A stretch of DNA of 64,000 nt from Candidatus Aenigmatarchaeota archaeon (GCA_038998625.1 JAWADS010000001.1:30110-94109), one strand, 5' to 3'; shown: positions 17,127-46,591, counted from the first letter of the stretch. Program-made: numbers and translations. Notes: generated by a model from the letters alone, not told the origin.

Positions 17127-17246
17127 TGGGGTCGGAGGGATTCGAACCCTCGTTAACCGGTTGCTTCTTACTTCTCATAGCTCCATATACTGGAGCCGGT
17201 TTTCTAATCATGGAAGATGTCTTAGACCTAGCTAGACCACGACCCC
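17127..17246 (-). tRNA. tRNA-Trp(CCA) with two introns (~25/26: 17202-17218; 37/38: 17162-17189)
   Basis: GGGGTCG/CGACCCC acceptor stem, ACCGG/CCGGT anticodon stem, TTCGAAT T-loop; 75 nt after intron removal. Confidence 0.92.
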
Positions 17247-17347
17247 AGCCACCAGTGGGATTCGAACCCACAACCCCCTGATAACTTTCTGTCATTTTTC
17301 CAGTTATCAGGTACAAGTCAGGTGCTCTACCGTTGAGCTATGGTGGC
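17247..17347 (-). tRNA. tRNA-Thr(TGT) with 29-nt intron at 37/38 (17283-17311)
   Basis: GCCACCA/TGGTGGC acceptor stem, CCTGA/TCAGG anticodon stem, U73 discriminator. Confidence 0.92.
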
Positions 17348-17429
17348 ATAAAATAAATATATTTTTTCAAATATAGAAAATTTATAAAATAAAAGTTTTT
17401 TGTTTTATGAATTTTTTAGGTAAAATAAT

Positions 17430-18503
17430 TTAGTCTAGGAAATCTTCTTCTTCAATCTTTTTTGGTAGGTATTTTTCTGTCATATATTTCAATCCTTTAC
17501 CAGAGAGGGATTCCAATTCTGCTTTTATTTTTCTCTGAATCAAAAGTTTTAACTCTTTTTGCCATTCTGGACTTTTAAACCATTCATAATTTAGCATCTC
17601 TTGCGCCCTTTTAATATCAACTTCTTCAGCTTTAATGGTCCACTCCTTTAAGTCGAATTTATCTATATCTGAAATTGTTAATCCTAGGAATTTTGCCTTG
17701 GGCGTTCCCAATTTTTCTGAAATATGGCTAAGGGATATGGAGCCGTGCTTAACAACAGAATAGATATACCATCCCCAACTATCGGCATCAGTAAATACAT
17801 AAACAGGGAGGTTAAATTCTTGAGATAATCTTTGAATTAATCTTCTTGCTCCTCTTGATGCCTGACCTTGCAGTCCAAGCAAAATGCATTTATGTTTTCT
17901 CCAAAATTTATCTTCATTTAATCTTTCCCAAGCCGCTACTTTTTCCACAACCAACAAATAATCTGCATTCATTTTTTTGAATTTTATGTCTTCTACATTC
18001 GAGGGAATGCTCCATCCTCCAGAGCCTAATTTAGACCAATCAATTATGTCACCCATATCTTCAATAACAACATTACCCACAACTCTTCCTCTAACATCAG
18101 CATTAAGATGTAATTGTTCCCTTAGAATGTCTAAGGAAACTTCCAAATCTACAACAATGGGATCACTTTCATTTTGTTCATTAAAGGTATTTTCATTGGA
18201 GTTGGGTAGTGTTTTCTTTAATGCATAGAACATGTCCCTTAGGCTTGTGTGTAAGTTTTGTTCTATAAGTTCTTTTGTAAAGGCGGCTACCAATAAAGTT
18301 TGCATAAATTTTTTGGCATGCGCTATGTTGAAGAAATATCTTTTTGCAGTTTTATTTCCTAAAGTTAACATCCCAGTTTTTGCATCGTATATTATATTAG
18401 ATAAAGTCCTTAGGGGTATGTCTAAATTTGGATTATCTCCTTTTTCTATATCTTGTAAAATTTTTTCTCCTAATTTTCTAAGTTTTTCCTTCGCCTCCTT
18501 CAG
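17430..18503 (-). CDS. top6A: DNA topoisomerase VI subunit A (probable CTG start at 18503; ORF track starts at 18371)
   Basis: SLRDMFY catalytic Tyr, VEK and DAD toprim motifs; the conserved N-terminal IPLRTLSNIIYD lies upstream of the first ATG. Confidence 0.93.
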   Translation of the reverse strand: MKEAKEKLRKLGEKILQDIEKGDNPNLDIPLRTLSNIIYDAKTGMLTLGNKTAKRYFFNIAHAKKFMQTLLVAAFTKELIEQNLHTSLRDMFYALKKTLPNSNENTFNEQNESDPIVVDLEVSLDILREQLHLNADVRGRVVGNVVIEDMGDIIDWSKLGSGGWSIPSNVEDIKFKKMNADYLLVVEKVAAWERLNEDKFWRKHKCILLGLQGQASRGARRLIQRLSQEFNLPVYVFTDADSWGWYIYSVVKHGSISLSHISEKLGTPKAKFLGLTISDIDKFDLKEWTIKAEEVDIKRAQEMLNYEWFKSPEWQKELKLLIQRKIKAELESLSGKGLKYMTEKYLPKKIEEEDFLD

Positions 18504-20049
18504 ATTCTCCCACCTCAGTTTTCTTTTTGATATATTCTTCTAACTTTTTCTTTATTAACTCTTTATCCCCCTTCGTTAGTTTTGATAAACTTTCCGCAAC
18601 TTCTGGTATGTATCGAGCGAATAGTTCTCGTCTTAATTGTCTTTCCCTTAACTTAACTTTATGCCTTATATATGTGGCCAATTTTCGTCCCGCTTCTTGC
18701 AACGCTAGTTTCATTTCTTTTAAAATTTCAGGATAGCTTGCGATGGCTTGTTTTCCTTCTGATGTATAAGGTACCCAAACAGATGCAAAGTGGATTAAAA
18801 TAACAAGCGGACCAATAGGTAATTGTCCAGAGGGCTGGCTAAAACCATAACGCCTCCAATCCACTTCAGTTACAGCTTCTGTAGCTACACAATCTTTAGC
18901 ATGATAAAGAAGAGGAACTTTATTAGCATATCTTATTATTTTTACCGGTTCTTCTGGAGATAAGTTGCCTCCATACGCTAAACCAACTTCCACAATGAAT
19001 GGAAATCCGCTGTAAACGCTGGGAGGTCTGCTAACCGCAACAAAATGCTCAGCCTCAACCTCTTTTTTTAGTCCTTCGATTATCAAATCTTCGCCTAAAG
19101 GTGATAATACATCGGTGGGCGGAGCAACTAATTTTACCATTTGCATTGCTTTATGCAACCTTTCTAATTCGTCTAAACTTAATTCTTGTGGTTTTCTGCT
19201 ATATGGAACCCTTGCTAATTTACAAATTTGTTGTGCAGATTTTTTTCCAACTCTTGAAAAATCTTTTGTTAAAAAGCTAATCAAATTTCTTGCTTTAGTA
19301 GAGTATGCCATTCTTCGTAAAACTCCCAATTGAACTCCATAAGGATGTGGTTTAATTTCTTTTGGTCTAGTTGGAATTTCATTGGTAACTCTCTCAAATG
19401 TTATTTTTCCAGTAGGTCCATGATAAATGATTCTTGCATAGGGATTAGCTATTGCAGTTTGTTTTAAATATTCTAGAATAGATTGCTTTCCTTCTACATA
19501 TCTTCCTTCCACTTCTAATTCTATCTTTATTCCGTGCCATTTTTCCGGATTCCTTTCAATTTTATGTGCTAGAATGTGAGGAGAGTTTTTTGTTACATCA
19601 ATCATTAAATCAAAGATATGAATATCTTTCCCTGTAGACGAAATAATTTTAACAGGCTTTCCAGTTGTTAGTTGCGAATATAAGACTGCTCCAGATATTC
19701 CAATTCCTTGGGTCCCTCTACTTTGTCTCAATTTATGAAATTTCGTTCCATATAACAATTTTCCAAAAGCCAAAGGAATTTTTTCCGGCACTATCCCTGG
19801 GCCATTATCTTCCACAACTACTTTAAATCTATCTATACCAGTTTCTTTTATACTTACTTTAATTTCAGGCAACATGTTTACTTCATTGGCCGCGTCTAAA
19901 GAATTATCCACCGCCTCCTTTACTACAGTAATTAAAGCCTTAGTGGGATTTTCATATCCTAAAAGATGTCTATTCTTTTCAAAAAATTCTGCCACGCTAA
20001 TTTCTCTAAATTCTTCTGCTAATTGTTCTGCTGTTACTTTTTCATCCAT
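18478..20049 (-). CDS. top6B: DNA topoisomerase VI subunit B
   Basis: EISVAEFFEKN, KEAVDNSLDA, EDNGPGI, SRGTQGIG (GHKL ATPase). Confidence 0.97.
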   Translation of the reverse strand: MDEKVTAEQLAEEFREISVAEFFEKNRHLLGYENPTKALITVVKEAVDNSLDAANEVNMLPEIKVSIKETGIDRFKVVVEDNGPGIVPEKIPLAFGKLLYGTKFHKLRQSRGTQGIGISGAVLYSQLTTGKPVKIISSTGKDIHIFDLMIDVTKNSPHILAHKIERNPEKWHGIKIELEVEGRYVEGKQSILEYLKQTAIANPYARIIYHGPTGKITFERVTNEIPTRPKEIKPHPYGVQLGVLRRMAYSTKARNLISFLTKDFSRVGKKSAQQICKLARVPYSRKPQELSLDELERLHKAMQMVKLVAPPTDVLSPLGEDLIIEGLKKEVEAEHFVAVSRPPSVYSGFPFIVEVGLAYGGNLSPEEPVKIIRYANKVPLLYHAKDCVATEAVTEVDWRRYGFSQPSGQLPIGPLVILIHFASVWVPYTSEGKQAIASYPEILKEMKLALQEAGRKLATYIRHKVKLRERQLRRELFARYIPEVAESLSKLTKGDKELIKKKLEEYIKKKTEVGESEGGEGKT

Positions 20050-20547
20050 TTAACTCCCCCTTTGTCTTTCCAAAAAATTATAAACAGTTCCGTGCTTCTT
20101 GCCTTCTAAAAGCATTTCTACAGCTTTCTTTGCTTTTTCTAAATCATTCCATTTTCCAATAATACTTATTGTTTTTCCATAAATTACTATCTTTACATTA
20201 CAAATCCTTTCTATCATTTTTTTAATCTTCCCTTCCCTTCCTATAACTCTACCCTTCAAAACAATTTGCCTTTTCCTTGATTTACCCGCATATTCCTTTA
20301 CTTCTATTGTTTCAAAGAAATAATCTTCATCTAGAAGGGTTAAAGCATCTTCAAAACTGAAACCTCTTCCAAAAGCCTTTAATACATTTTTAACTCTTAA
20401 AAGCATTAATGGATCTTCGCATTTTATACCAATTTCTTCGTTTAAATTTAATTCTGCATTACAAAATTTTTTCAATCTTTCTACCCAACTTTTATTTTTC
20501 TTCAGAAGTTTAATCCTTTCTTCCGGTATTGCTAAATATTCTATCAT
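20050..20547 (-). CDS. KH-domain rRNA-processing protein Dim2/Pno1
   Basis: KAFGRGFS, KGRVIGREG, HGTVYNFLE; ATG at 20547 preferred as start. Confidence 0.88.
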   Translation of the reverse strand: MIEYLAIPEERIKLLKKNKSWVERLKKFCNAELNLNEEIGIKCEDPLMLLRVKNVLKAFGRGFSFEDALTLLDEDYFFETIEVKEYAGKSRKRQIVLKGRVIGREGKIKKMIERICNVKIVIYGKTISIIGKWNDLEKAKKAVEMLLEGKKHGTVYNFLERQRGS

Positions 20548-21293
20548 TTCAACCATTTTTTAAACCAGAGGGCTGATATTTCAAAAGCATAATTTTTATG
20601 TTCAGGATTGGAAAGGCTGTGATCTGCATCACTAATAACTTCTAATTTTTTTGGTTTATTGGCTTCTTGGTGGGCTTTTTCTGATTGTTTAGGATTAACT
20701 ATCGCATCTTTAGAACTCACTATGAATAAAATCGGACAATTTATTTTTTTTATAGCGCTAATTACATCAATATTAATTATTTCCTCAAAAAATTTTTCAC
20801 TAATTGGAATTCTTCTGTTGTCTTTAGTTAAATAATTCACATAACCTTTCCTTTCCATTTCTCTTAGTTTTTCATGGTCAAAAAATTTTAAAAAAACTTC
20901 TTTCGGAAAAATTAAAGGATTGATTACTGTAATACAATTAATTTTTTCATTAAAACTTAAAATGGCTATTGTTCCCCCTAAGCTGATTCCAAACAATCCT
21001 ATTTTTTCATAACCTTCAGTTTTAACTACTTCTATTGCTCTTTTCATATCTTCAACTTCTTGTGATATAGTAATATCTAAACTGCTGCCTTCGCTTTCAC
21101 CATGGCCAACAAAATCAAACCTAAAAGTTGCAATATCATGAAAAGAAAAAATCTCAGCACCTTTTTTAAAATAATCTTTGTTTCCCAAAAATCCATGGGC
21201 AAATATTACACATGATTTATTTTTATTAGCTCTGTTTAAAATTCCAACTCTTTTGTTTTTACCTGAGTAAAAAATGATTTTTTCTTCAGGCAT
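20544..21293 (-). CDS. Alpha/beta hydrolase
   Basis: AHGF, FDFVGHGESEG, GISLGG nucleophile elbow, D and H of the triad. Confidence 0.9.
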   Translation of the reverse strand: MPEEKIIFYSGKNKRVGILNRANKNKSCVIFAHGFLGNKDYFKKGAEIFSFHDIATFRFDFVGHGESEGSSLDITISQEVEDMKRAIEVVKTEGYEKIGLFGISLGGTIAILSFNEKINCITVINPLIFPKEVFLKFFDHEKLREMERKGYVNYLTKDNRRIPISEKFFEEIINIDVISAIKKINCPILFIVSSKDAIVNPKQSEKAHQEANKPKKLEVISDADHSLSNPEHKNYAFEISALWFKKWLK

Positions 21294-21335
21294 TTTTCAC
21301 CTCTAATTTTATTTCTAATTTTATTTTTTAGAAAT

Positions 21336-21659
21336 TTATTCAATGGAGATACTTTTTATGTAATTTTTTCTTTTTAACCAATTTGCTTGGGTAGGAGTAT
21401 ATTTAAAAATCACATCCCCCCTTTCCTTACTTTGAACCTTCCATGGCTCTACTAAAACTAAATCCCCAACTTTAATCCAAATTTTTTTCCTCAATTTTCC
21501 AGGAATTCTTACAATTCTAGTATTACCATCATCACAAATTACTTTCAATTTGTCCCCTCCTAGCATTTGCTCTACTACCCCCAAAACTTCATTTTGTTTG
21601 GGAATTCTAATTCTGGCTATTTCCAATTCTTCTTGGGTCAATTCTTGCTTTTTCGCCAT
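21336..21659 (-). CDS. eif1a: Translation initiation factor aIF-1A
   Basis: QMLGG, RIPGKLRKKIWI..GD.VLVEPW. Confidence 0.95.
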   Translation of the reverse strand: MAKKQELTQEELEIARIRIPKQNEVLGVVEQMLGGDKLKVICDDGNTRIVRIPGKLRKKIWIKVGDLVLVEPWKVQSKERGDVIFKYTPTQANWLKRKNYIKSISIE

Positions 21660-21735
21660 CCCATCACTTTATTTAGTATTTTACACCATTAATTAAATTT
21701 TAAATACATATCTTTCTGTTTTTAATGAAGATAAT

Positions 21736-22422
21736 ATGCGTTATGTAGCTTTAGTCCCAGCTTTTAATGAAGAAGAGAATATAGAGAAAGTGATTAAACT
21801 TCTAAAAAATTTGTTCTATATGGATGTTGTTGTAGTGGATGATGGCTCTAAGGATAGAACAGCCGAAATAGCAAGGAAAAGTGGTGCAATTGTTTTAAAA
21901 CATAAAATAAATAAAGGTAAGGGCGAAGCCTTGAGGACTGGTTTAAATTATATTTTAAAGAAACATAATGCCAATTATGTTGTTTTAATTGATGCTGATA
22001 TGCAATATCATCCTAAAGAATCTGTAAAGTTGTTGAAATTATTGGAAAAAAACGATGCAGACATTGTTATGGGATATCGAAATTGGAAGAGCATACCTTA
22101 CTTTAGACATAGGCTGGGCAATTTCTTCTGGCGATCACTTTTTAATTTATTATTTGGGACAAAGTTTAAAGATACAAATTGCGGCTTTATGGCTATGAAT
22201 AGGATAGCTATAAAAAAGATTAAAAACAATATTCATGGGGGCTATATCATAGAAAATTCTATTTTAGCATCTGCTCTAAAAAATAAATTAAAAGTAATGC
22301 AAGTTCCAGTAAGTGTGAAGTATAAAAAGAAAAGTGGTATAAGAAGAGGAATTAGGATATTTCTAGGGGTTTCAACTTTTATATTGTGGGAAGGTTTAAA
22401 ATATAGATTAGGCATTAATTGA
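21736..22422 (+). CDS. GT2 family glycosyltransferase (DPM1-like)
   Basis: PAFNEE, VVDDGSKDRT, DADMQ. Confidence 0.9.
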   Translation: MRYVALVPAFNEEENIEKVIKLLKNLFYMDVVVVDDGSKDRTAEIARKSGAIVLKHKINKGKGEALRTGLNYILKKHNANYVVLIDADMQYHPKESVKLLKLLEKNDADIVMGYRNWKSIPYFRHRLGNFFWRSLFNLLFGTKFKDTNCGFMAMNRIAIKKIKNNIHGGYIIENSILASALKNKLKVMQVPVSVKYKKKSGIRRGIRIFLGVSTFILWEGLKYRLGIN

Positions 22423-22489
22423 ACAAAAACTAATTTTTTAAATGGATTGATTAATTTAATAAATTTCAAAGTAGATTTAGAATAATTTA

Positions 22490-22593
22490 GGGACGGTAGC
22501 TCAACCCGGGAGAGCAACTAAAGCTCTAAACCGCCTGAAGAGCGGTGCGTTGTGGGTTCAAAAGGCTCTTGCCTGAAATTCCCACCCGTCCCA
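22490..22593 (+). tRNA. tRNA-Phe(GAA) with introns at 26/27 (22517-22529) and 59/60 (22563-22579)
   Basis: GGGACGG/CCGTCCC and ACCGC/GCGGT stems; textbook BHB ggg-ttca-aa|a-ggc...gcc-tgaa-at|t-ccc in the T-loop; 74 nt mature. Confidence 0.93.
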
Positions 22594-22612
22594 TATAATT
22601 AGAGAGATAAAC

Positions 22613-23179
22613 ATGGTAGAAAAAGTTTGGGAAGGAGAATTAATTGAAAATAGAGTAATAATTTGGGATAGTCAAGCTGTTAATCTTTATGATGATTCTG
22701 GTTATGGTAAGCCCTTACCAGAGGACAAACCTGATAGAGTCGAATTAGATTTGGTGGAAGCCGCTTACTTATTAGAAAAAGGTAAGTTAAAAGTTTTTTT
22801 AAAGGAGGATAAGAAGAAAAGATATCTTAACTTTAATGAATTAATGGAAATAGGAGCAAAAAATATAAATCAGTTTCACCCTCAATTTATAGTTTTTCGC
22901 GACTTAAGAGAAAGAGGATATCTTGTTAAAACTGGTTATAAATTCGGTGCGCATTTTCGTGTTTATGATAGAGGAGTTAAATTGAAAAGAGGTCCAAAAG
23001 CTCCTCATGAACATACTAAATGGGTAGTGCATGCAGTACCAGAAGAGGCTGCCTTTTCATTACCTGAAATGTCTAGAGCAGTTAGATTAGCACACAATAT
23101 AAGAGCGACATTTTTATGGGCAGTTGTGGATAAAGAGTCAGATGTCACTTATTATCAAATAACTCGTGTCACACCTTAA
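22613..23179 (+). CDS. endA: tRNA-intron (splicing) endonuclease
   Basis: LDLVEAAYL, FRDLRERGYLVKTGYKFGAHFRVY, VDKESDVTYY. Confidence 0.95.
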   Translation: MVEKVWEGELIENRVIIWDSQAVNLYDDSGYGKPLPEDKPDRVELDLVEAAYLLEKGKLKVFLKEDKKKRYLNFNELMEIGAKNINQFHPQFIVFRDLRERGYLVKTGYKFGAHFRVYDRGVKLKRGPKAPHEHTKWVVHAVPEEAAFSLPEMSRAVRLAHNIRATFLWAVVDKESDVTYYQITRVTP

Positions 23180-23235
23180 TCTCAATAGCCATTGATTAAG
23201 CATATAATTTAATTTTAAGGAAAGATGGTGATGAA

Positions 23236-23436
23236 ATGGGAAGAATAAAAACTTCTTTTATTAAAAATTTGGGGGAAGAACTATACCAAAAGTATTCTGA
23301 TAAGTTTTCTGAAGATTTTGAAAAAAATAAGGTAATTCTCAAAGAACTTATTGACATGAAATCAAAGAAATTGAGGAATATTTTAGCTGGTTATATAACT
23401 AATCTTAAGAAAAGAGAAAAATTACAACCATCCTAA
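23236..23436 (+). CDS. rps17e: 30S ribosomal protein S17e
   Basis: MGRIKT, FSEDFEKNK, SKKLRNILAGYIT. Confidence 0.97.
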   Translation: MGRIKTSFIKNLGEELYQKYSDKFSEDFEKNKVILKELIDMKSKKLRNILAGYITNLKKREKLQPS

Positions 23437-23477
23437 AGGTTTAATGTTTTAAAACATAAGTAAATTTTAAGAGGAAG

Positions 23478-24605
23478 ATGCTAAAAAAAGCTCAAGCAAG
23501 AATAGATGAATTTGCTTTTGTTCTTCTTGCAGGTGTTATATTAATTGTTATTTTAATGGTTGCTTGGACGACTCCAACTTCTGCTATTCCTTTAGTCGAG
23601 CCCAATTCCATCTCTTTAACTATAGGCTTAGGTACAACTAAAAGTGCTGTGTTAAATATAACTGGAATGCCTTCTACAAATGTTACATTATCAGCTTTTG
23701 GTAACATTGCGAAATTCACAAGATTCAGTAAAAATAATTTTGATGTCTTTGGCTCCGAGTTAGTTACGGTAATTTTCTCTATACCACCCAATGTTGCTAC
23801 AGGCCTTTATACAGGAAAGATAATCGTGAATTCTTCAGCTGGCTCAGCAAATATTCCTGTAGAAATAAATGTAGTTAATATAACAGCTCAACCCCTTTCA
23901 GTAAAGGCTATTCCTCTAGGGGATTTCTCTATAGTTGGGCCTAGCAAAACATTAGATTACAAAGAGAATCTCTATGTGGAGAGAAGCTATTTCTCAGAGC
24001 GCATATCGATAATTTCTGGTGGCTTCTTAGCTGAAGAAGAGCTTGCGGCTTTAACAGGCGCAACTCTACAACTTTTCATATCTGAAACTAATGGATTAAG
24101 TAATTTAATTGTGGAAGTAAATGGAAAGGAAGTTTTCAAAGCAAAAGTTGACATGGGCTTAATAAACATACCCATAGATCCAAGTATTATTGGTGAGAAA
24201 AATGTCATTAAAATAAGGGCAGATCTTCCAGGATGGCTATTTTGGACTTCTGCATATTACAGAATTGAGTCAGCTAAATTCTATGTAACTTTAAAAGGAA
24301 TATTTTCCAAAGAATTTATTTTTTCCCTTTCTCCAATGGAGGCGACAAATTTTGATAGATTGCAAATCCAATTTATAGTTTTGAAATATTCTTCCCCTCT
24401 ACCAGAATTATTTATAGAGGTGAACAATCAGCCTATATATGCTCAATCACCACCTTTGGCTTTATTTAATGCAACCTTCACAAAAGATTTATATGGCAAT
24501 GGCTTGATGATGTTGCCTGGCAATAACACATTAAGATTTTTCTTCAGAAGGCCAGGAATTTATGATGTTGGCAATGCTTTGCTATTGTTCTTTTATAGAG
24601 GATAA
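23478..24605 (+). CDS. Class III signal-peptide surface protein with beta-sandwich domains
   Basis: KKAQ followed by a hydrophobic helix; G.YTGKI motif; many N-x-S/T sequons. Confidence 0.7.
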   Translation: MLKKAQARIDEFAFVLLAGVILIVILMVAWTTPTSAIPLVEPNSISLTIGLGTTKSAVLNITGMPSTNVTLSAFGNIAKFTRFSKNNFDVFGSELVTVIFSIPPNVATGLYTGKIIVNSSAGSANIPVEINVVNITAQPLSVKAIPLGDFSIVGPSKTLDYKENLYVERSYFSERISIISGGFLAEEELAALTGATLQLFISETNGLSNLIVEVNGKEVFKAKVDMGLINIPIDPSIIGEKNVIKIRADLPGWLFWTSAYYRIESAKFYVTLKGIFSKEFIFSLSPMEATNFDRLQIQFIVLKYSSPLPELFIEVNNQPIYAQSPPLALFNATFTKDLYGNGLMMLPGNNTLRFFFRRPGIYDVGNALLLFFYRG

Positions 24606-24610
24606 GCAAA

Positions 24611-24693
24611 TGGGCCTGTCCGGAATCGAACCGGAGTTTCGACCGTGTGAGGGTTTAACGCTTCGTCGCGTCCTACCACTAGACTACAGGCCC
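24611..24693 (-). tRNA. tRNA-Val(CAC) with 12-nt intron at 28/29 (24655-24666)
   Basis: GGGCCTG/CAGGCCC acceptor stem; CGACC/GGTCG restored after removing a BHB-flanked intron. Confidence 0.9.
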
Positions 24694-25155: not shown

Positions 25156-25293
25156 TTAGTTTTCCCCTCCAGATGCCGATAAATTTGTGTAAGAGAAATT
25201 AATGTTCTTGAACTTATCGCACCTGGAGGTTCTCATGATAATAATTTTAAAACTGTTAATTTTTAAAAGCTTTTCTATACTTCTTTATCTAAT

Positions 25294-34234: not shown

Positions 34235-34378
34235 TGCAGGGGGTGGGATTTGAACCCACGAAGGCACTAAGCCACGAGGTTTCTTATCTTCATCCTATCA
34301 GAGCTCAAGTAAACCTCTATCTTGAGCTTCGCGCAACTTTAAAATCTCGCGCCATTGACCAGGCTAGGCGACCCCTGC
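34235..34378 (-). tRNA. tRNA-Leu(CAA) with introns at 30/31 (34328-34345) and 37/38 (34281-34320)
   Basis: GCAGGGG/CCCCTGC acceptor stem, long variable arm, BHB cgcg-ag|a...cgcg-aa|g; 86 nt mature. Confidence 0.92.
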
Positions 34379-35120: not shown

Positions 35121-35206
35121 TGCGCCAGCCGGGATTTGAACCCGGGCCCTAAGCTTGGCAAGCTTCCACAACTTTTTATGTCCTAACCAGGCTAGACTAC
35201 TGGCGC
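35121..35206 (-). tRNA. tRNA-Gly(GCC) with 12-nt intron near 28/29 (~35165-35176)
   Basis: GCGCCAG/CTGGCGC acceptor stem; TAAGC/GCTTA restored after removing 12 nt; junction ambiguous by +/-1. Confidence 0.9.
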
Positions 35207-35925: not shown

Positions 35926-36011
35926 AGCCCCGAGTGGGATTTGAACCCACGACCCAGTGCTTACGAGGCACTTAAGCTTAAATTTGCTCTACCAGACTGA
36001 GCTATCGGGGC
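35926..36011 (-). tRNA. tRNA-Thr(CGT) with 12-nt intron at 27/28 (35972-35983)
   Basis: GCCCCGA/TCGGGGC acceptor stem; BHB gagc-aa|a...gctt-aa|g; U73. Confidence 0.92.
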
Positions 36012-37119: not shown

Positions 37120-37144
37120 AAAACTTTAAGAACAATGTGAAGAT

Positions 37145-37576: not shown

Positions 37577-37613
37577 AGATTTAATTAAAATTTTCCTGTC
37601 TTTTCAAAATTTA

Positions 37614-37775: not shown

Positions 37776-37926
37776 TAAATCTAGATAAAGGGGAAAATTT
37801 TTCAAAAAAGTTTACAAAGAAGGACCTCGCGCCTATATTCTTTGTTTTATATCTCGCGCGAGGTGGACCGCCCAGTGGAGCGAACCAATAAAAAAATTAA
37901 AAACCTTAAAAAATTAATTAGAAAAT

Positions 37927-38832: not shown

Positions 38833-39020
38833 AAAAGAAAAAATAAGTCTTTTTTTAAAAAAATTGACTTAAAATTTCCGTAGAAACAATTATCTCGTTA
38901 ATTTTATATATTAGAAACAATTAAAAGAATTATTTTATAATCTGTTTTTAACTAAGAAATTGTTTCAAGAAATTTTTATATACATTATAAATCAAAATTA
39001 ACTTTAAGAAATCCCAAGCG

Positions 39021-39056
39021 CTGTAGACTATAGAATCGAGATGATATAGTTTACAG
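39021..39056 (+). promoter_or_regulatory. Leader hairpin (12 bp) capped by GA...GA upstream of the S-layer gene
   Basis: CTGTAGACTATA-GA-ATCGAGAT-GA-TATAGTTTACAG. Confidence 0.6.
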
Positions 39057-39087
39057 TGAAGAAAAAATTAGAAGGTGAAATGGAAAA

Positions 39088-41349
39088 ATGCAAATTAAGA
39101 AATGGGTTGCCACGGGTTTATCAGCCTTAATGGCTGGAGCAACCTTGGCAGGAGCTGTTTTAGCCGCACCACTAAGTAACTACCCTGCTTTCTTTGGTGG
39201 GGAAGTTCCTTATGTGGTGATTGGCGCCACTGCAGCTTCTAGTGATGTAGTAGGAGCAGTAGACATAATGGCTAGCTTGGCAGGTGTTTCTGTTGTAGAG
39301 AAAACCGTGCCAGGCGTGCCCACTACTCAAGTTTTGGGAATCGAAAGAAAGGTAGTGATCCCAACTACTAACGCAGGTTCAGTTATAGCATCAACTACTC
39401 CAAATGCAAATCAATTTCCAATTCCACTAAAGACATATCACTTTAGTGGATTGTTACAAGGACAATTTAGCTATAAAGGGACAAGCTATAACTATCATGA
39501 AGAAGTTAATTTTGGTACAACAAATCCAATCCTAACTCATAGCTTAACAACCTACGTAAATGGAACACTAAAAATGAAAGTAGATACTAATGCAGTAGAA
39601 TACCGTTATGTATTTGATAACACAATACCGGCATCTGATTTCAACTTCCAAACAGCCAATACAACAAGCTATCAAAATCCAGTGTCAGTTAAGGTAGCTG
39701 GTAAAGATTTCTTAATAGTAGCAGTACCATCCTCAAGCTCCTTTGTTGCTCTAACAGGAACTGTAGGATGGGTAACTGCTGGTTCAACAACAGGCTTAAC
39801 AGTCGGTGATTTGACAGCATTAGTAGATGCTGTATATCAGAACACTCAAGCATCAATAAGAATAGTTGACAAAGACGGCAATCTAGTTGCTAATTTGGGT
39901 GTAGTGGGAACAGATGCAAGAAGTTTTACATTTGGAGGCAAGACTTACAAAATTAAAGTATTAAATACCGCACTATCTACTAAAGAATCAGTTGCTGATA
40001 GTGCGCAATTAGTATTCGGGGAAGGAGATGTAGAAAAAACTTACGACGGAAGTGATACAGCAGTAATAGCAGATTGGGGTCCTCAGTGGAAGATTTCTGG
40101 AAATTTCCCTACAGCAGGTCAAATTCAAGCTGGCAATTACATAAAAGTAGTTTATAGTCCAGCAACTCTAGATGAGGCCCAAAAGTATTATGAGGCTGGA
40201 TCTAAGTTCTTGGGTCCAGGCGGTTACTTTGAGTTAAGCTATGCTGGCCTTACTCCAGATAAATTTGCTAAAGTTACTATAGCTCCGGTGTCAGGCAAAA
40301 CAGTATACAATTCAACAGCAGCTTCAGGATATTCAACTTGGAGCGGCTTAAATGGACTAGAGTTTTCAACAGATGTTGGTGGCACTATAGTATATGGCGG
40401 AGTAGGATATGATAAAACATATCTTCTCTTTAATGCATCAGATTCAGCAAGTCTCTTTAATGGTACTTTCTATTGGTTAGGTTACTTCGATAAAAACACT
40501 AATAGAATAGTAAATTTAACAGCGCCAGAAAAAATAAATGACACCACCTATAGAACATTCAAATTTGATTTGTCATATGGTGGGAGCGCAGCAGTAACAT
40601 ACAGTGTATGGGGTGAATTTGATGGATCAACTTTGTTAAACAATTTGACAATAAATACAACAGGAGCACCAGAGGAAGTTGTTCTTGCATATAGAAATAG
40701 AACAGCTTCTTCAACCACAGCATCTCCAGAGTTAGTGTTGGGACCTACAGCAGCCAAGTCAGAATCTAATGATGTCAGAGCAACGGTAGAAGGTAGTCTT
40801 AGTGATATATCTCTTCAAGAAAAGGATGTATTAACTGACAATGGAGTAATAGTATACACAGTAAAAGGAAATGCAGATGCAGATAAGGCCGTAGTAGGAA
40901 TACCTCCAGAAACAGTTTATGGTTTAGTACAGTTTGGTAAAGTAGTTGCAACAACAGGTGCCGGTCAGACTTACAAGGAATTTGTCCCAGTTACTGCCGC
41001 TGTGGCTAAGCTAGATAGCGAGCTTACAACTGCTGCTGATAGAGGAGCAAAGCATCTAATCCTGGTTGGAGGTCCTTGTGTAAATACCCTAGTTGCTGAT
41101 TTGGCAACTGCGGGTAAGTTCCCATACACATGTGCCACCTGGCCAGGAAGAGACTTTGGTATGATTAAAGTAATAGACGATGCCTTTGCAACTGGTAAGA
41201 TAGCGGTAGTTGTGGCTGGAACAAGGGCAGCTGATACAAGATTGGCAGCTTCTGTGTTACAGCAATATGCAACAAGACTAGCTGGTGTGGCAGCCAGTAC
41301 AGTAGAAGTAACTGGTACAACTGCAGCTCCTGTAGTAACTCCAGTATAA
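39088..41349 (+). CDS. S-layer protein
   Basis: Signal peptide; VVIGATAASSDVVGAVDI; C-terminal LILVGGPCVN.LV and VVVAG...DT. Confidence 0.9.
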   Translation: MQIKKWVATGLSALMAGATLAGAVLAAPLSNYPAFFGGEVPYVVIGATAASSDVVGAVDIMASLAGVSVVEKTVPGVPTTQVLGIERKVVIPTTNAGSVIASTTPNANQFPIPLKTYHFSGLLQGQFSYKGTSYNYHEEVNFGTTNPILTHSLTTYVNGTLKMKVDTNAVEYRYVFDNTIPASDFNFQTANTTSYQNPVSVKVAGKDFLIVAVPSSSSFVALTGTVGWVTAGSTTGLTVGDLTALVDAVYQNTQASIRIVDKDGNLVANLGVVGTDARSFTFGGKTYKIKVLNTALSTKESVADSAQLVFGEGDVEKTYDGSDTAVIADWGPQWKISGNFPTAGQIQAGNYIKVVYSPATLDEAQKYYEAGSKFLGPGGYFELSYAGLTPDKFAKVTIAPVSGKTVYNSTAASGYSTWSGLNGLEFSTDVGGTIVYGGVGYDKTYLLFNASDSASLFNGTFYWLGYFDKNTNRIVNLTAPEKINDTTYRTFKFDLSYGGSAAVTYSVWGEFDGSTLLNNLTINTTGAPEEVVLAYRNRTASSTTASPELVLGPTAAKSESNDVRATVEGSLSDISLQEKDVLTDNGVIVYTVKGNADADKAVVGIPPETVYGLVQFGKVVATTGAGQTYKEFVPVTAAVAKLDSELTTAADRGAKHLILVGGPCVNTLVADLATAGKFPYTCATWPGRDFGMIKVIDDAFATGKIAVVVAGTRAADTRLAASVLQQYATRLAGVAASTVEVTGTTAAPVVTPV

Positions 41350-41450
41350 AATTAGCTCCAGTCTATATAGGCTGAATTTGCCGACTTTTTTATTTTCTTT
41401 GTTTTTTGAATTAATTGTTTCTTGAGTAGAATTTTTAGGAAAGTCTAAAT

Positions 41451-42002
41451 ATGGTTTTGAGAATAAAAATTACAAGGGAGCAAATAATTGGATTTACTTC
41501 TTTACTACTTTTGTTTTTAGTGGGAATTTATCTTTATCTAAACTTTTATCCTGTAAGAACGGTAGTGATTGATGGTACACCCATAACTTTTAGGCAAAAT
41601 ATTAAGGAAGCAAAAAATGTTTTAGTTTTCCCCAATGAAGATGAAATATTCAATAAACTTTTCAATACAGCAGTAATTAACATAACCTTTGTTTTTAAAG
41701 ATGCTGGGGAAAGGGAAAATCCTTATTATATTTTACAAGAAGTAGAGATAATAAATAAACTGACTTTTGCATACGCTAGACTTAATAGAAAAGTTAATTT
41801 TAACGCTATGCCCATCGAAACCTATGAAAATCTTAGAGGCACAATTTACAATCCCATTATAGCTTTAATTCATCCTATTTATGCCAATGAAACTTTTGTT
41901 ATGGTAAAGGATAATGTGATTTTTATTTCTGGTAAAAACTATAAAGATTTTGATTTAGCGACAATAAGATTCTTATCTATTGCTTTAAATATAAAAATTT
42001 GA
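41451..42002 (+). CDS. Hypothetical membrane-anchored protein
   Basis: N-terminal TM helix. Confidence 0.7.
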   Translation: MVLRIKITREQIIGFTSLLLLFLVGIYLYLNFYPVRTVVIDGTPITFRQNIKEAKNVLVFPNEDEIFNKLFNTAVINITFVFKDAGERENPYYILQEVEIINKLTFAYARLNRKVNFNAMPIETYENLRGTIYNPIIALIHPIYANETFVMVKDNVIFISGKNYKDFDLATIRFLSIALNIKI

Positions 42003-42027
42003 TATTTGAAAAATAAAGTAGGGTTTT

Positions 42028-43254
42028 ATGTATTGGATTGATGCAATATTGCTCGCAGCATTGTTTCTAATTTGTTATACCATGACATTTCATTTAATTC
42101 TTTGGTTTGAAAATCGAAACCATTTGTATAAAAGAGGTTATAAAAAACAAAAATTGCCTGACTTAAGTTTAATCATTCCTGCTTACAATGAATCTAATGG
42201 AATTTTGAATACCTTAAAGAGATTGCTAAAGGTTAATTATCCAAGAAATAAGCTAGAGGTTTTAGTTATCGATGATGGAAGTGAAGATAATACTTATCAA
42301 ATAGCAAAGGATTTTTCTAAAAGACATAAATTCATTAAAGTTTTCAGGAAAAGGCATTCTGGTAAAGCAGCCAGCATAAATTTTGGAATTCTTAAAGCTA
42401 AGAATGAATTTGTTGGTGTTATGGATGCTGATAGCCATTTAACTCCTAATGCTTTGCTGAATTGTATGAAATATTTTAATTCTGATGATGTTGCTGCAGT
42501 CACAACTAGAATTTTAGTAAAACAAAAGAAAACCCTTTTAGAAAAATGGCAAGATATAGAATTCAAAATAATTGCTTTGGCTAGAAAAATTAAGGAAAGT
42601 TTAAATCTTATTGATGTAACTCCAGGGCCTTTGAGTATTTACAGGAAAAAAGCTTTAATTAAGGTCGGAATGTTTGACGAAAAAAATCTCTTGGAAGATA
42701 TGGAAATAGCATGGCGCCTTTTAAAATATGGTTATAAAATAAATATGGCCTATGATGCTAAAGTCTACACTTTTTACCCTGGAAAATTTTTGGCATGGTT
42801 AAAACAAAGAACAAGATGGCATATTGGGTGGCTTCAGATAATAACAAAATACCTTAATTCTATATTTAAAGATCATCCTGTCGGAACTTTTCTTTTACCT
42901 GTTGCATTGTTAAGCGTAGCTTTTCAGGCAATAGTAACGGGAATAATTATTTATTTGTTTTTAACTTGGTTAATAACCATGATTTATTATATTCATAACT
43001 CTTTAGTACTAAAAATAATGCCACAGATTTTCTATTTTGATTTTCAACCAAACATTTTTACTTTTTACGGAATTTTGTTCTCTATTTTGGGTATCTATTT
43101 TTCATTAGTTATTCTAAGGCAGTACAAAAAAGGACCCAGGATATTTGAGCTAATGAGTTTTATCTTTCTATATTCTTATTTACCCTTTTTGATGGTTTTT
43201 GTTTATTCTTTATTCAAAATATTAACAAGGAGATATTCTTGGTTGACAAAATGA
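42028..43254 (+). CDS. GT2 processive glycosyltransferase (cellulose synthase/PgaC-like)
   Basis: PAYNE, DDGS, DAD, ED, QRTRW; multiple TM helices. Confidence 0.9.
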   Translation: MYWIDAILLAALFLICYTMTFHLILWFENRNHLYKRGYKKQKLPDLSLIIPAYNESNGILNTLKRLLKVNYPRNKLEVLVIDDGSEDNTYQIAKDFSKRHKFIKVFRKRHSGKAASINFGILKAKNEFVGVMDADSHLTPNALLNCMKYFNSDDVAAVTTRILVKQKKTLLEKWQDIEFKIIALARKIKESLNLIDVTPGPLSIYRKKALIKVGMFDEKNLLEDMEIAWRLLKYGYKINMAYDAKVYTFYPGKFLAWLKQRTRWHIGWLQIITKYLNSIFKDHPVGTFLLPVALLSVAFQAIVTGIIIYLFLTWLITMIYYIHNSLVLKIMPQIFYFDFQPNIFTFYGILFSILGIYFSLVILRQYKKGPRIFELMSFIFLYSYLPFLMVFVYSLFKILTRRYSWLTK

Positions 43255-43904
43255 AGATGGGGCCCTATATTAAAGCTGGTTTAATTACATTGTTTATTTT
43301 TGTTAGTGGCATTATGTTTGGAATTTTCATTGATAATTTTCGTTTATCTGAAATAAGGGAAAGAATTTCGAGGGTCGAAGTAAGCTCTCTTGACGCCATG
43401 TTAATGTCTTTGTATTTTCAAAAATTCGGAAAAGGAGCTTGTGATATAGCTCTAGATACAAATCTCAGATTCAATCAAAGAATTTATTCTGAAGGATCAA
43501 GGATAGAAGAAGCTATAAAAGTAAATATGTTTACTCCAGAATTAGAACAAGAATGGAGAAGATACATTTTGCTACAAGTTCAATTCTGGTTTAATAGTGT
43601 TGAATTGAAAAAAAATTGTAATTTCAATTATAGCAATGTGGTGCATCTTTTCAAATTAAAGATTGAAGATCCTCAAGAAAAGGCTTTAAATAAATTACAA
43701 TCACAGATTATGCTAAATTTAAAACAAAAATGCGGGAATAAGATAATGTTAATTCCAATAACTACTGATAGCAATCTTTCCATTGTAGATGCAGTAGTAA
43801 AGCAACACAACATCACTAAATTACCAGCAATAATAATAGATGAAGAAAAAGTTTTTCAAGGGTTAACAAGTTTAGAGAGGCTGAATGAAGTTACTAATTG
43901 TTAA
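43251..43904 (+). CDS. Membrane-anchored protein with thioredoxin-like C-terminus
   Basis: N-terminal TM helix; ITKLPAIIID...FQG; ATGA-overlap start at 43251. Confidence 0.7.
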   Translation: MKMGPYIKAGLITLFIFVSGIMFGIFIDNFRLSEIRERISRVEVSSLDAMLMSLYFQKFGKGACDIALDTNLRFNQRIYSEGSRIEEAIKVNMFTPELEQEWRRYILLQVQFWFNSVELKKNCNFNYSNVVHLFKLKIEDPQEKALNKLQSQIMLNLKQKCGNKIMLIPITTDSNLSIVDAVVKQHNITKLPAIIIDEEKVFQGLTSLERLNEVTNC

Positions 43905-44080
43905 TTTTTAATTTTTTCTAAAAGTCCAGAGTTTTTCCATAAAAAATTTGCAATATTAGTAGTGCCGGGAATTATCCACAACAATAATTTCAAACCTTTC
44001 CTTTGAAAGAGTTTTGTGAAGAGTTTTATCAACTCTTCAATATTTTCTGCTTCATTATATGTCGGAATTATCCTCAACAT
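43901..44080 (-). pseudogene. Frameshifted, truncated GT2 (DPM1-like) remnant
   Basis: IIPTYNEAENIEELI in frame; FEIIVVDNS in a shifted frame; GT.NIA back in frame; then a stop. Confidence 0.7.
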
Positions 44081-44095
44081 AATTCTGGTTTAAAT

Positions 44096-44437
44096 TTAAA
44101 GGAGCTTTAATTTTCCAGTAATTTTATCAATTTTATCCTCTTTATCAGGGCCAATTCCCAAGGCAGTAATAGTTCCTTTTTTCACTTGGGTAAGGCCAGC
44201 ATCCCTCACTAAAAAGCAAGGAATTTTTTCTTTTTTCACTTTTTTGTATATCTCCTTTAATTTCTCTAAGCTGTTAACTTTAACCACAATTTTTTTTGCT
44301 CCTTCCTTTTCCCAAATTTCTGAAATGTTTTTATTTGCTTTTTTCAAACTACCAATGGCTGCGTGGGCCACTTGGGCTGCAATTTTACCAACACCTAGCT
44401 TCAAGTCCTTTCTTACCACAATAACTTGCTTATACAT
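44096..44437 (-). CDS. pth2: Peptidyl-tRNA hydrolase Pth2
   Basis: KQVIVVRKDL, GKIAAQVAHA, DAGLTQ, GIGP. Confidence 0.95.
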   Translation of the reverse strand: MYKQVIVVRKDLKLGVGKIAAQVAHAAIGSLKKANKNISEIWEKEGAKKIVVKVNSLEKLKEIYKKVKKEKIPCFLVRDAGLTQVKKGTITALGIGPDKEDKIDKITGKLKLL

Positions 44438-44445
44438 TTTCCACC

Positions 44446-44964
44446 TCAAAATACTGATTTGATTAAAGCTTCTATGTAATGGATTAATATTGTTCCTCCA
44501 AAATAACCAGAGAAGGCAATTAAAATAGTTTTTATAGTCTTCCCAATAAATGTTGCTAAAAAGAATTTCTTCAAATTATAATTACTTGCTCCTGCTAAAA
44601 TTCCAACAACATCAAATGGAAAAGGTAATAGGGCAGTTATGAGAATAGTTAAAAAACCAAATCTATGAAAATGTTTTTCTAACCATCTAAACCATTTCGG
44701 CAATTTTTTCTTTTCTTCGACGACATGCCTACCTCCAGCCCCAAGAAAATAGCCTGTTAATTCACCTATGGCCGATCCCAAACCGGATGCAAATCCAACT
44801 ATAAATGGATTTAATCCTAAACTTGTTACAACAAAGGTAATTGCATATAACGGCAAAGGAAGAAAAATTGTAGAGGTGGAAATTAGACTTAAGAGGAAAA
44901 CTCCAAAATAAGAAAATTCTATTAAAAATTGATGCGCCCATGTTAAAATTTCAAAAATTACCAT
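44446..44964 (-). CDS. VTT/SNARE-associated (DedA-like) membrane protein
   Basis: GSAIGELTGY, LPFPFDVVGILAG. Confidence 0.85.
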   Translation of the reverse strand: MVIFEILTWAHQFLIEFSYFGVFLLSLISTSTIFLPLPLYAITFVVTSLGLNPFIVGFASGLGSAIGELTGYFLGAGGRHVVEEKKKLPKWFRWLEKHFHRFGFLTILITALLPFPFDVVGILAGASNYNLKKFFLATFIGKTIKTILIAFSGYFGGTILIHYIEALIKSVF

Positions 44965-44995
44965 TGATTATTTTTTTGATTTTTTGATATTAAAT

Positions 44996-45436
44996 CTAAC
45001 CAATATATTCAGTTTTTTTCTCCTTTTCTTCCTGCTTCTCTTTAGGAATTATTATGGGAAAGAGTATTGGGGGTGGCAATTGAAGCTCTTCAGATATACT
45101 TAATCCTAAGCCTAAACATTTTCTGAATAGAAAGTTTTTAATTTCTATGTCAATTTTTTCTGGTAACTTCTTTTCCTTTTTCCAATCTTTTAATATTTTC
45201 TTTGAATCTTCACTAGCAAATAAAAGCTCTCCAGACATTTTTATTTTTGCTACATCTGGCTTATATTCTGTTTCAAACTCAAAAGTTATTCCTAAAGCGG
45301 TCTGTTTGCCTAAAATATTTACAGTCCTTTCTTCAACGGTTTTAATAAGTGGAGTAGAAGAAATATCTATTCTACCGACAGGATTCCCTTTTCTTTCTGC
45401 TACAATACTTTTTAAAGAGTAACCCAATATAGGCAT
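44996..45436 (-). CDS. Conserved archaeal hypothetical protein
   Basis: F.FETEY.P, LQLPPPI.FP and C-terminal EYIG. Confidence 0.7.
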   Translation of the reverse strand: MPILGYSLKSIVAERKGNPVGRIDISSTPLIKTVEERTVNILGKQTALGITFEFETEYKPDVAKIKMSGELLFASEDSKKILKDWKKEKKLPEKIDIEIKNFLFRKCLGLGLSISEELQLPPPILFPIIIPKEKQEEKEKKTEYIG

Positions 45437-45510
45437 GATATTACCTTTGAGATACCATTTTATTGAATTTATATCTTTATATAATTACCTTAACTTTATT
45501 AAGATTATTT

Positions 45511-46182
45511 ATGGGAGCTATAAGTTTAAATGGCTTAAAAATAGAATGGCTGAAGCACGATTGTTTTAAAATTAAGGATAAAAGAGTAATTTATTTCGAT
45601 CCTTTTCAACTTTCCAATGAACTTGAGCCAGCAGACTTAATTCTCATAACCCATGAACATTTTGATCATTGCAGCATTGAGGATATTCAAAAAATCATCA
45701 AAAAAACCACAATAATTGTTGCGGCCGAAATATGTAAAAAAAGTGATTTGCCTAGTATCGAAGGTAAAGTTAAAAAAATTGTTTATATGAAACCCAATTC
45801 TACTTTGCCAATAGATGAAATAACAATCGAAGCAATACCAGCTTACAATGTCAATAAATTTAAAGCTCCAGGGGTGCCATTTCATCCTAAAGGTGAAAAT
45901 AGAGTAGGGTTTGTTTTGAATTACGAAGGAAAGAGAATTTATCACGCTGGCGATACAGACTACATTCCTGAAATATCTTCTTTAAAAAATATTGACGTTG
46001 CATTATTACCTGTTTCAGGAACTTATGTTATGACTGCCGAAGAAGCAGCAGAAGCTGTTAAAAACTTTAGACCAAAATTAACTATACCAATGCATATTGA
46101 AGGTGGAGTAGTTGGAACTTATAGGGACGCAAGAAGGTTTAAAGATTTAGCCAGTAATTTTACTAAAGTTGAGATTTTATAA
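45511..46182 (+). CDS. MBL-fold metallo-hydrolase
   Basis: ITHEHFDH, YHAGDT, IPMH; ATG at 45511 preferred as start. Confidence 0.9.
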   Translation: MGAISLNGLKIEWLKHDCFKIKDKRVIYFDPFQLSNELEPADLILITHEHFDHCSIEDIQKIIKKTTIIVAAEICKKSDLPSIEGKVKKIVYMKPNSTLPIDEITIEAIPAYNVNKFKAPGVPFHPKGENRVGFVLNYEGKRIYHAGDTDYIPEISSLKNIDVALLPVSGTYVMTAEEAAEAVKNFRPKLTIPMHIEGGVVGTYRDARRFKDLASNFTKVEIL

Positions 46183-46210
46183 TAAATAAACAAAAAACGA
46201 AATTTATTTT

Positions 46211-46453
46211 ATGGTAGCAAATGGAATGGAAGAACAATTATTAGTAGAGCTTTCTAAGAGGTTGGTGATGAAAAAAGATGAAATTATAAATTTTCTTCAG
46301 GATAAAGTTCCTAATGCTAAGCAAGTATATACACAATTGCTTCAAGATTTAATATCTAAAGGTTTTGTCAGGCATGTGGAACCTGTTGGAGAAAGTGTTG
46401 TAGCAATAACTCAGAAAGGAATGAAAGAAGTTAACGCAAAAATTTTTAAATAA
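46211..46453 (+). CDS. Small winged-helix protein
   Basis: L..L..KGFV...ITQKG wing motif. Confidence 0.65.
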   Translation: MVANGMEEQLLVELSKRLVMKKDEIINFLQDKVPNAKQVYTQLLQDLISKGFVRHVEPVGESVVAITQKGMKEVNAKIFK

Positions 46454-46474
46454 TTTTTATTAATTTGATTATAT

Positions 46475-46591
46475 AGCCCCGTCGTCTAGCGGCCAAGGAC
46501 GCGAGGCTTTGGATATTTTATCTAAAGCTCTGATTTGATTTCGATGAAGAGAAGAAACCTCGAAACCGCAGTTCGAATCTGCGCGGGGCTA
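46475..46591 (+). tRNA. tRNA-Gln(TTG) with 44-nt intron at 37/38 (46513-46556)
   Basis: AGCCCCG/CGGGGCT (A1-U72), CGAGG/CCTCG, BHB cttt-gg|a...gaag-aa|a; 73 nt mature. Confidence 0.93.

Follow-up and report, generated by a model that had tools for sequence, protein, structure and literature searches.

What do the long introns of particular tRNA genes do in an extremely reduced archaeal genome? The question is raised by a 64,000-nt stretch of DNA from Candidatus Aenigmatarchaeota archaeon (GCA_038998625.1, JAWADS010000001.1:30110-94109; hereafter the window, which means the whole stretch), where four tRNA genes, for Trp, Thr(UGU), Leu(CAA) and Gln, carry introns of 28, 29, 40 and 44 nt, respectively, at position 37/38. 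A preliminary description of this DNA had proposed that these introns hold minimal box C/D guides aimed at their own tRNAs. Our analysis leads to a similar view: each long 37/38 intron is probably a natural box C/D RNA with one guide and one kink-loop (K-loop), that is a 'half-mer', residing in the precursor of its own target. Judged from sequence, it would most likely form a half-mer C/D ribonucleoprotein (RNP) that acts on that precursor and directs the tRNA's own 2'-O-methylation at nucleotide 34 (39 in Thr). The pattern itself is real, lies far above chance and is conserved with compensatory change.

Guide and box motifs in the four long introns

Coordinates and lengths of the four introns, as first described, were reproduced by hand parsing, cmscan and ARAGORN (Table 1), and within the window these are indeed all the introns at the canonical position, the other three tRNA genes having introns elsewhere. 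In each of the four, an antisense stretch could be read directly before a D-like box, and the rule that C/D RNPs methylate the base paired to the fifth nucleotide upstream of box D (N+5) gave the same register as had been claimed, with C34 (Trp), U39 (Thr), C34 (Leu) and U34 (Gln) as predicted targets. A C-like box follows in Leu (AUGAAGA), Gln (AUGAAGA) and Thr (AUGACAG), separated from the D'-like box by UAGG in Leu, AAA in Thr and 10 nt in Gln, so that both boxes of a K-loop are present in these three introns but not in that of Trp, which is without a downstream UGA. The general layout of a module is 5'-guide (7-12 nt)-D' box (NNGA)-loop (3-11 nt)-C' box (AUGANNN)-3', followed by a short purine-rich tail belonging to the splice motif.

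Two points of the preliminary description need revision. The four intron sequences are not unrelated, since AGCU-NUGA and a GAAG-type 3' tail are common to Leu, Gln and Trp; part of this likeness arises because their target bases 30-33 are identical (GGCU). Among the two forms suggested for the RNA, circularly permuted or half, the half form with its one K-loop stands; circular permutation is unnecessary, since D' followed by C' is the ordinary order at the internal K-loop of a C/D RNA. In the Thr intron, CUGA at nucleotides 2-5 was considered as a D box and rejected, as it sits within the guide; nucleotides 10-13 were taken instead because UGGA or UUGA is conserved there in 6/6 Thr orthologues.

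The frequency of such an arrangement by chance was estimated from 200,000 shuffles per intron, counting those with at least 6/7 guide pairs followed by NNGA in register. This criterion was passed by 1,910 shuffles for Trp, 1,220 for Thr, 4,613 for Leu and 14,055 for Gln; those that also had a UGA whose position 6 pairs with the first base of the D' box (D'1) numbered 24 for Thr, 377 for Leu and 1,035 for Gln. Minimum free energy (MFE) folds of the anticodon arms contained the cis guide hairpin in Trp, Gln and Thr, with a helix of 10 bp in Thr, and in Leu only when the anticodon stem was enforced. A search of the window against Rfam yielded no C/D family, either at gathering score or with E values up to 1.

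Conservation in relatives and covariation of the boxes

Forty relatives from the same genus, family and order were searched with the Gln, Leu, Trp plus Thr, and Met genes. Anticodon arms were extracted by a script, which yielded 171 candidates, and introns of 26-52 nt from seven anticodon families were kept. Seven genes that the script had overlooked, through a second intron or a stem mismatch, were added by hand, and six mis-parsed rows (including L048+, a 21-nt row of L027, a TTT row of L066 and the duplicate G000_C4+) were removed; a TCG filter applied to L012 hit no additional row. The final set comprised 75 long introns: 23 of Gln(UUG), 14 of Leu(CAA), 13 of Leu(UAA), 10 of Met, 7 of Trp, 6 of Thr(UGU) and 2 of Lys(UUU). 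The Trp and Thr sets are small because the search for their orthologues, at an E value of 1e-6, found matches in only 14/41 genomes.

Within this set the best antisense site showed 7/7 pairs in 54 introns and 6/7 in the remaining 21. It was directly followed by NNGA, with N+5 at nucleotide 34 (39 in Thr), in 73/75, and AUGANNN was found downstream, after a spacer of 1-12 nt, in 71/75. The four failures were the Trp intron of the window genome (no C' box), L015 (no boxes), L021 (CUAA) and L026 (AUGGGAA). The D' box read UUGA in 33 cases, CUGA in 26, CAGA in 4, AUGA in 3, CGGA in 2, and UCGA, UGGA and UAGA once each. The guide changes with the anticodon, being UUGAG for CAA, UUAAG for UAA, CAAAG or UAAAG for UUG, AUGAG for CAU, UGGAG for CCA and AAAAG for UUU. 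In all six Thr(UGU) introns, intron bases 1-10 form the guide, which pairs with the last 2-4 intron bases and with 38-43, N+5 being 39. All seven Trp introns have a single guide, for position 34, and those of six relatives (L066, L067, L071-L074) contain a complete D'/C' pair. The compact form suspected to extend over several isotypes is thus found in seven anticodon families, and the module lies in orthologous introns across family and order.

The Met module was followed further with a simple pattern (CTCAT, gap, ATGAG, NNNN, GA, gap, ATGA). It matched in 186 of the 371 genomes of a phylum sample and in 50/69 of the window's own family; the same pattern written backwards matched in about 9 genomes, and a few long-gap forward matches were clearly due to chance.

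In a box C/D kink-turn (K-turn), tandem sheared pairs are formed between the GA of box C and that of box D; next comes a pair that is frequently non-canonical, and then a Watson-Crick pair. In the modules, the latter pair would correspond to D'1 with the sixth base of the C' box (D'1:C'6), and these two bases were complementary in 71/71 cases (C-G 32, U-A 31, U.G 5, A-U 3), with more than one type of pair within six of the seven anticodon families. When the C' boxes were permuted among introns, none of 10,000 permutations attained 71. The preceding pair, D'2:C'5, was U-A in 33 cases, U.U in 23 and otherwise mixed, and the Thr intron of the window is doubly compensated (UGGA/AUGACAG). The constancy of G3 and A4 in the parsed boxes is partly by construction, because the parser demanded GA in D' and AUGA in C'. 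Covariation is seen in two places, in the guides, where the preliminary description had called for a test against the anticodon, and at D'1:C'6.

The proteins of the presumed particle, whose genes were also to be confirmed, are all encoded in the genome, each scoring above the Pfam cut-off: fibrillarin (228 aa, 240 bits) adjoins Nop5 (347 aa, 231 bits), and L7Ae scored 109 bits.

Two further complete modules lie outside the window, both aimed at position 34: one in the 45-nt intron of tRNA-Met on contig C13 (AUGAGCU|UUGA...AUGAUAA) and one in the 33-nt intron of tRNA-Leu(UAA) on contig C4 (CUUAAGCU|CAGA...AUGAAGA). A scan of anticodon arms revealed short canonical introns of the same genome that have no module, in Ile(UAU) (17 nt), Ser(UGA) (18 nt), Cys(GCA) (13 nt) and Ile(GAU) (12 nt). 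Similarly, in relatives the 13-nt intron of Leu(UAG) in G001, of the same genus, and the 19-nt intron of Ile(UAU) in L078 are without one, and the Gln(CUG) genes of L031, L032 and L034 have no intron at all. Since canonical introns of 12-18 nt lack it, the module characterises long introns in certain tRNAs and not every 37/38 intron.

Predicted course on the precursor and alternative explanations

The modules would act in the following way. Sequence and covariation show that D' and C' can form a K-loop with tandem G.A pairs, the variable pair D'2:C'5 and the Watson-Crick pair D'1:C'6, and L7Ae would bind this K-loop and bring in Nop5-fibrillarin. By its sequence the guide pairs with the anticodon loop (30/31-37), usually as a cis hairpin whose loop of 3-6 nt starts at the 5' splice site; in Thr(UGU) its partner is instead the 3' splice junction together with 38-43. 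Fibrillarin would then, following the N+5 rule, 2'-O-methylate nucleotide 34, or 39 in Thr. On refolding, the 3' tail would pair with 32-35 to form the bulge-helix-bulge structure (BHB motif), and the intron would be spliced out, so that the predicted order is folding of the guide hairpin, methylation, refolding and splicing. In Thr, and for part of the guide in Gln, the pairing partners include intron bases, so that in these cases at least the substrate would have to be the unspliced precursor.

How guide and splice motif share the intron can be seen from the tails. In archaea the splice motif consists of a 4-bp helix with a 3-nt bulge on either side, the splice sites lying in the bulges (PMC4090602), and in this geometry the strand pairing with 32-35 must be intron bases n-5 to n-2, a four-base stretch that ends two before the 3' splice site. 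The 75 tails read GAAGAA (27), UAAGAA (16), AAAGAA (6) or otherwise, and their pairs with 32-35 numbered 4/4 in 32 introns, 3/4 in 34 and 2/4 in 9. The outer helix h' tends to be weak, 29/75 introns having 0-1 consecutive pairs there, which looks like a relaxed BHB motif. The 3' tail thus seems to supply the BHB strand, and the guide in the middle of the intron would then be unnecessary for splicing. Guide and tail compete for the same bases, and only 3-6 unpaired bases separate the guide from the 5' splice site in 53/67 of the position-34 introns (the loop of L010 is GCAA). The picture suggested by these sequences is one of two mutually exclusive conformers, the guide hairpin with its K-loop and, later, the splice motif.

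The alternative that survives best, although we regard it as improbable, is that L7Ae bound to the K-loop and a hairpin masking the anticodon loop together serve the folding, quality control or timing of these precursors, without methyl transfer. The pairing of guide and target is mostly a tight cis hairpin, also in the MFE folds, a second site for Nop5 is absent, and many K-turn RNAs other than C/D RNAs are bound by L7Ae (PMC5539422), all as would be expected for masking. However, masking gives no reason why a box should stand exactly 5 nt from the base pairing with 34 or 39 in seven anticodon families, nor why the arrangement should be restricted to tRNAs that are C/D-guided at position 34 in Pyrococcus, and Nop5 and fibrillarin have been kept in a genome of 469 kb. 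Still less probable is that the antisense stretch and the boxes are merely a splicing substrate, a BHB motif with flanking helices and no role in modification. Any archaeal 37/38 intron must pair with 32-35, some D' boxes (for example CUGA and UUGA) look like tRNA positions 32-35, and in the shortest introns the C' box AUGAAAG supplies the BHB strand. In contrast, the BHB partner was located at the 3' end of the intron, with at least 3/4 pairs in 66/75, where a guide in mid-intron competes with it; the introns of 12-19 nt without a module in the same genomes evidently suffice for splicing; and the N+5 register, the invariant GA pairs and the covariation of D'1:C'6 are left unexplained. Least credible of all is a chance likeness or a decaying, non-working relic of a once complete intron-borne C/D RNA, to which the lost C' box of the genome's own Trp copy, the Gln orthologues without a box and the commonness of purine-rich motifs in an AT-rich genome might point, but even the pattern of a single intron is rare in shuffles, and the module persists with compensatory changes across family, order and much of the phylum sample.

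Several observations weigh against half-mer guides that methylate their own precursors. An earlier study found the single-site hemi-complex active yet non-specific (Hardin and Batey, 2006; PMC1635284), and half-mer function may therefore be species-dependent. For the Trp intron of Haloferax volcanii, a mechanism in trans was later argued (PMC7994747). None of the 75 introns of 26-52 nt contains a second box pair, that is a terminal C/D K-turn; the guides of Leu, Met and Trp are short (7-8 bp); and the tight cis hairpin, with its 3-6 nt loop, may be a poor geometry for fibrillarin. The Trp intron of the window genome has no C' box and no UGA 3' of AUGA, three Gln orthologues (L015, L021, L026) are without a box, and in the shortest introns (for example L010, 29 nt) the C' box overlaps or supplies the BHB strand, K-loop and splice motif being therefore mutually exclusive there. 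The choice of families and the 26-52 nt filter were made after the pattern had been seen. Finally, control pairs obtained by sliding the boxes are also frequent (D'2:C'6 in 59/71, D'2:C'7 in 54/71), as follows from the abundance of U in D' boxes and of purines in C' boxes; what supports D'1:C'6 is the outcome of the permutation test together with its three types of Watson-Crick pair.

The modules are a variant of the intron guides known from tRNA-Trp and from the tRNA-Met of Nanoarchaeum. Like the introns with a module, the euryarchaeal Trp intron (Haloferax volcanii; Pyrococcus sR50) is a 37/38 intron, which guides methylation of 34 and 39 in its own tRNA through L7Ae, Nop5 and fibrillarin, an activity that is predicted here, and its guide-bound and splice-motif conformers are likewise mutually exclusive. 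It differs in being bipartite and complete, with two guides and all four boxes (C, D', C' and D), and in its median length of 65 nt (PMC4090602), whereas the introns described here have one guide and one D'/C' K-loop in 26-52 nt. In addition, they are spread over Leu(CAA), Leu(UAA), Gln(UUG), Met, Trp, Lys(UUU) and Thr(UGU), and position 39 is served by Thr, a different tRNA from those guided at 34, whereas one euryarchaeal Trp intron guides both positions. That intron was termed 'a unique example' of a guide-encoding intron in a 2014 review (PMC4090602). The 66-nt intron of tRNA-Met in Nanoarchaeum equitans contains a C/D-like RNA (Randau, 2012; PMC3491384); it shares with our case the elongator tRNA-Met, the reduced DPANN-type archaeon and the C/D elements, and its excised RNA is stable, but it exceeds the modules in length, and its published drawing shows a box C and a box D.

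Free-standing guides offer a second comparison. According to a 2021 review (PMC7994747), position 34 is addressed by small RNAs (sRNAs) in Pyrococcus tRNA-Leu(CAA), Leu(UAA) and Met, and also in tRNA-Trp, where the guide comes from the tRNA's own intron; these coincide with targets of the modules. The Pyrococcus wobble sRNAs for the two Leu tRNAs and Met thus address the same nucleotide, but as separate bipartite genes acting in trans, whereas here the guide lies within the gene of its target. For tRNA-Gln(UUG), Um34 has been reported from Sulfolobus acidocaldarius (PMC7668247). With a bipartite archaeal C/D sRNA the modules share the K-loop boxes, the fifth-base register of the guide and the proteins, but not the terminal K-turn, made up of box C (RUGAUGA) and box D (CUGA) at the two RNA ends that close it, and their guides pair over 7-12 bp, compared with the usual 10-12 bp. 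The closest functional precedent is MMG5, a monopartite guide with a K-loop that, together with S. solfataricus L7Ae, Nop5 and fibrillarin, modified every substrate, including those of only 8 bp, and was strictly specific (PMC9670817). It has the same order of a 5' guide followed by a single K-loop, and its target pairs with guide position 5; unlike the modules, which are natural and embedded in the precursor of their substrate, it is synthetic, free-standing and trans-acting. Wang, Yang and Ye (2022; PMC9670817) ask whether such reduced guides occur naturally in archaea. In the literature covered, which takes in few subscription journals, introns of several isotypes that bear guides with a single K-loop were not described, and a prior report may exist.

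If half-mer guides do methylate their own precursors, they would be the first natural case of a one-guide one-K-loop design so far functional only as an engineered construct, in introns down to 26 nt. They would provide a concrete selective reason for long introns in particular tRNA genes of extremely reduced genomes, and the widely conserved wobble ribose methylation of tRNA-Leu, Met, Trp and Gln could be hard-wired in each tRNA gene. They would also follow a simple sequence rule that present sRNA and Rfam searches miss.

Further candidate guides and the tRNA genes of the window

Guide-like motifs were also noted at other sites of the genome. The 5' leader of tRNA-Ser(UGA) (contig C3:32739-32900, minus strand; L130) reads AAGACUCAAGGU-CUGA-UUUUUUAAG-AUGAUGA-AGAUAA and is directly joined to the tRNA. 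Its guide is complementary, in 12/12 positions, to 30-37 and intron nucleotides 1-4 of its own precursor, with U34 at N+5. The design is the same as in the intron modules, sited in the leader, and the 18-nt intron of this tRNA has no module. An insertion of 82 nt in the 16S rRNA (contig C13:98-179, minus strand; L129), flanked by GGAUUAGAUACCCCGGUA and GUCCUAGCC, has the ends CACGAG...CUCGUG, and between these two helix strands sits GUAUCUU-CUGA-UUAAG-AUGAAGA, whose 7-nt stretch is complementary to AGAUAC in the neighbouring exon. Insertion and motif are kept in 3/40 relatives searched (G020, G024 and G007; loci L135-L137), and it may be a half-mer guide borne by an rRNA intron.

A crude regular-expression search of the 469-kb genome for canonical bipartite C/D sRNAs gave 0 strict hits, and 0 in the reversed control, in an assembly that is without 23S rRNA and whose 16S rRNA is cut by a contig end; two hits of a relaxed expression resemble AT-rich or coding chance matches. 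This result, together with the Ser(UGA) leader and the 16S motif, hints at a broader, rather doubtful possibility, namely that the lineage has abandoned free-standing bipartite sRNAs and that its whole repertoire consists of monopartite K-loop half-mers embedded in tRNA introns, a tRNA 5' leader and a 16S intron, each within the precursor of its own target. There they would work in cis, and splicing or trimming could follow only once they had acted. If so, the guide would explain why introns are retained in these minimal genomes, and in this design the simple ancestral guide discussed by Wang, Yang and Ye (2022) could survive to the present.

Two other loci resemble modules. About 9 kb upstream of the window and outside any recognised tRNA (contig C1:21020-21060, plus strand; L132), UAACGCUAAGCU-UAGA-UUCAG-AUGAAAG is like a guide with a K-loop, and this guide would suit positions 31-36 of a tRNA-Leu(UAG). 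A heavily interrupted tRNA gene (contig C2:45544-45674, plus strand; L133) contains GAGAAGAAGGU-UUGA-UAAGAG-AUGAAAG, and the complement ACCUUCU lies upstream at a distance of a few bases.

The source genome comprises 469 kb in 19 contigs, with an estimated completeness of 91.8%. The window itself is archaeal DNA, with an archaeal signal recognition particle RNA and seven tRNA genes. Positions of genes and introns (Table 1) were parsed by hand, backed by cmscan and by ARAGORN run with introns, because default ARAGORN and Rfam overlooked or misnamed several of the interrupted tRNAs; the tRNA-Gln(UUG) gene was overlooked by both, and ARAGORN with introns detects it under a wrong name. From two metatranscriptome runs, the assembled contigs covered a small share of the region, and the pieces over tRNA genes derive from other sequences.

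Table 1. Interrupted tRNA genes of the window and elements of their 37/38 introns; positions are counted from the first nucleotide of the window.
Feature	Position	Strand	Basis and remarks
tRNA-Trp(CCA) gene, two introns	17127..17246	-	cmscan 42.6 bits; hand parse
Trp 37/38 intron, 28 nt	17162..17189	-	hand parse; arm scan
Trp D'-like box AUGA	17175..17178	-	module scan
Trp guide UGGAGCU	17179..17185	-	6/7 pairs; predicted N+5 = C34; cis hairpin in MFE fold
Trp second intron, ~17 nt, near position 26/27	about 17201-17217	-	hand parse
tRNA-Thr(UGU) gene	17247..17347	-	cmscan tRNA 64.6 bits; ARAGORN Thr(tgt) with 29-nt intron
Thr 37/38 intron, 29 nt	17283..17311	-	hand parse; arm scan
Thr C'-like box AUGACAG	17289..17295	-	module scan
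Thr D'-like box UGGA	17299..17302	-	G2 and U1 pair with C5 and A6 of C' box
Thr guide CCUGAUAAC, intron nt 1-9	17303..17311	-	pairs with last intron bases and 38-43; predicted N+5 = U39
tRNA-Leu(CAA) gene, two introns	34235..34378	-	cmscan 35.7 bits; hand parse
Leu 37/38 intron, 40 nt	34281..34320	-	hand parse
Leu 3' tail UAAGAA	34281..34286	-	BHB strand, pairs with 32-35
Leu C' box AUGAAGA	34287..34293	-	module scan
Leu D' box CUGA	34298..34301	-	module scan
Leu guide CUUGAGCU	34302..34309	-	pairs with 30-37, 7/7 pairs; predicted N+5 = C34
Leu second intron, 18 nt, near position 30/31	about 34328-34345	-	hand parse
tRNA-Gln(UUG) gene	46475..46591	+	hand parse; orthologues in relatives
Gln 37/38 intron, 44 nt	46513..46556	+	hand parse; arm scan
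Gln guide (UAU)CUAAAGCU	46519..46529	+	complementary to 30-37 and, in cis, to intron nt 1-3; predicted N+5 = U34; MFE hairpin
Gln D' box CUGA	46530..46533	+	module scan
Gln C' box AUGAAGA	46544..46550	+	module scan
Gln 3' tail GAAGAA	46551..46556	+	BHB strand, pairs with 32-35 (CUUU)

The other three tRNA genes of the window, for Val(CAC), Gly(GCC) and Thr(CGU), contain only introns of about 12 nt at positions other than 37/38. Short introns of 12-18 nt at non-canonical positions (around 26/27 and 30/31, in or beside the anticodon stem) are common among the tRNA genes; in the window they occur in the tRNA intervals 24611-24693, 35121-35206 and 35926-36011, all on the minus strand, as well as in Trp and Leu(CAA), and standard tRNA finders assigned wrong isotypes to tRNA genes interrupted in this way. 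The genes for Thr(UGU) and Trp abut with a spacer of 0, the Thr discriminator base being 17247 and the Trp +1 nucleotide 17246, and the two must come from a single transcript and be separated by end-processing.

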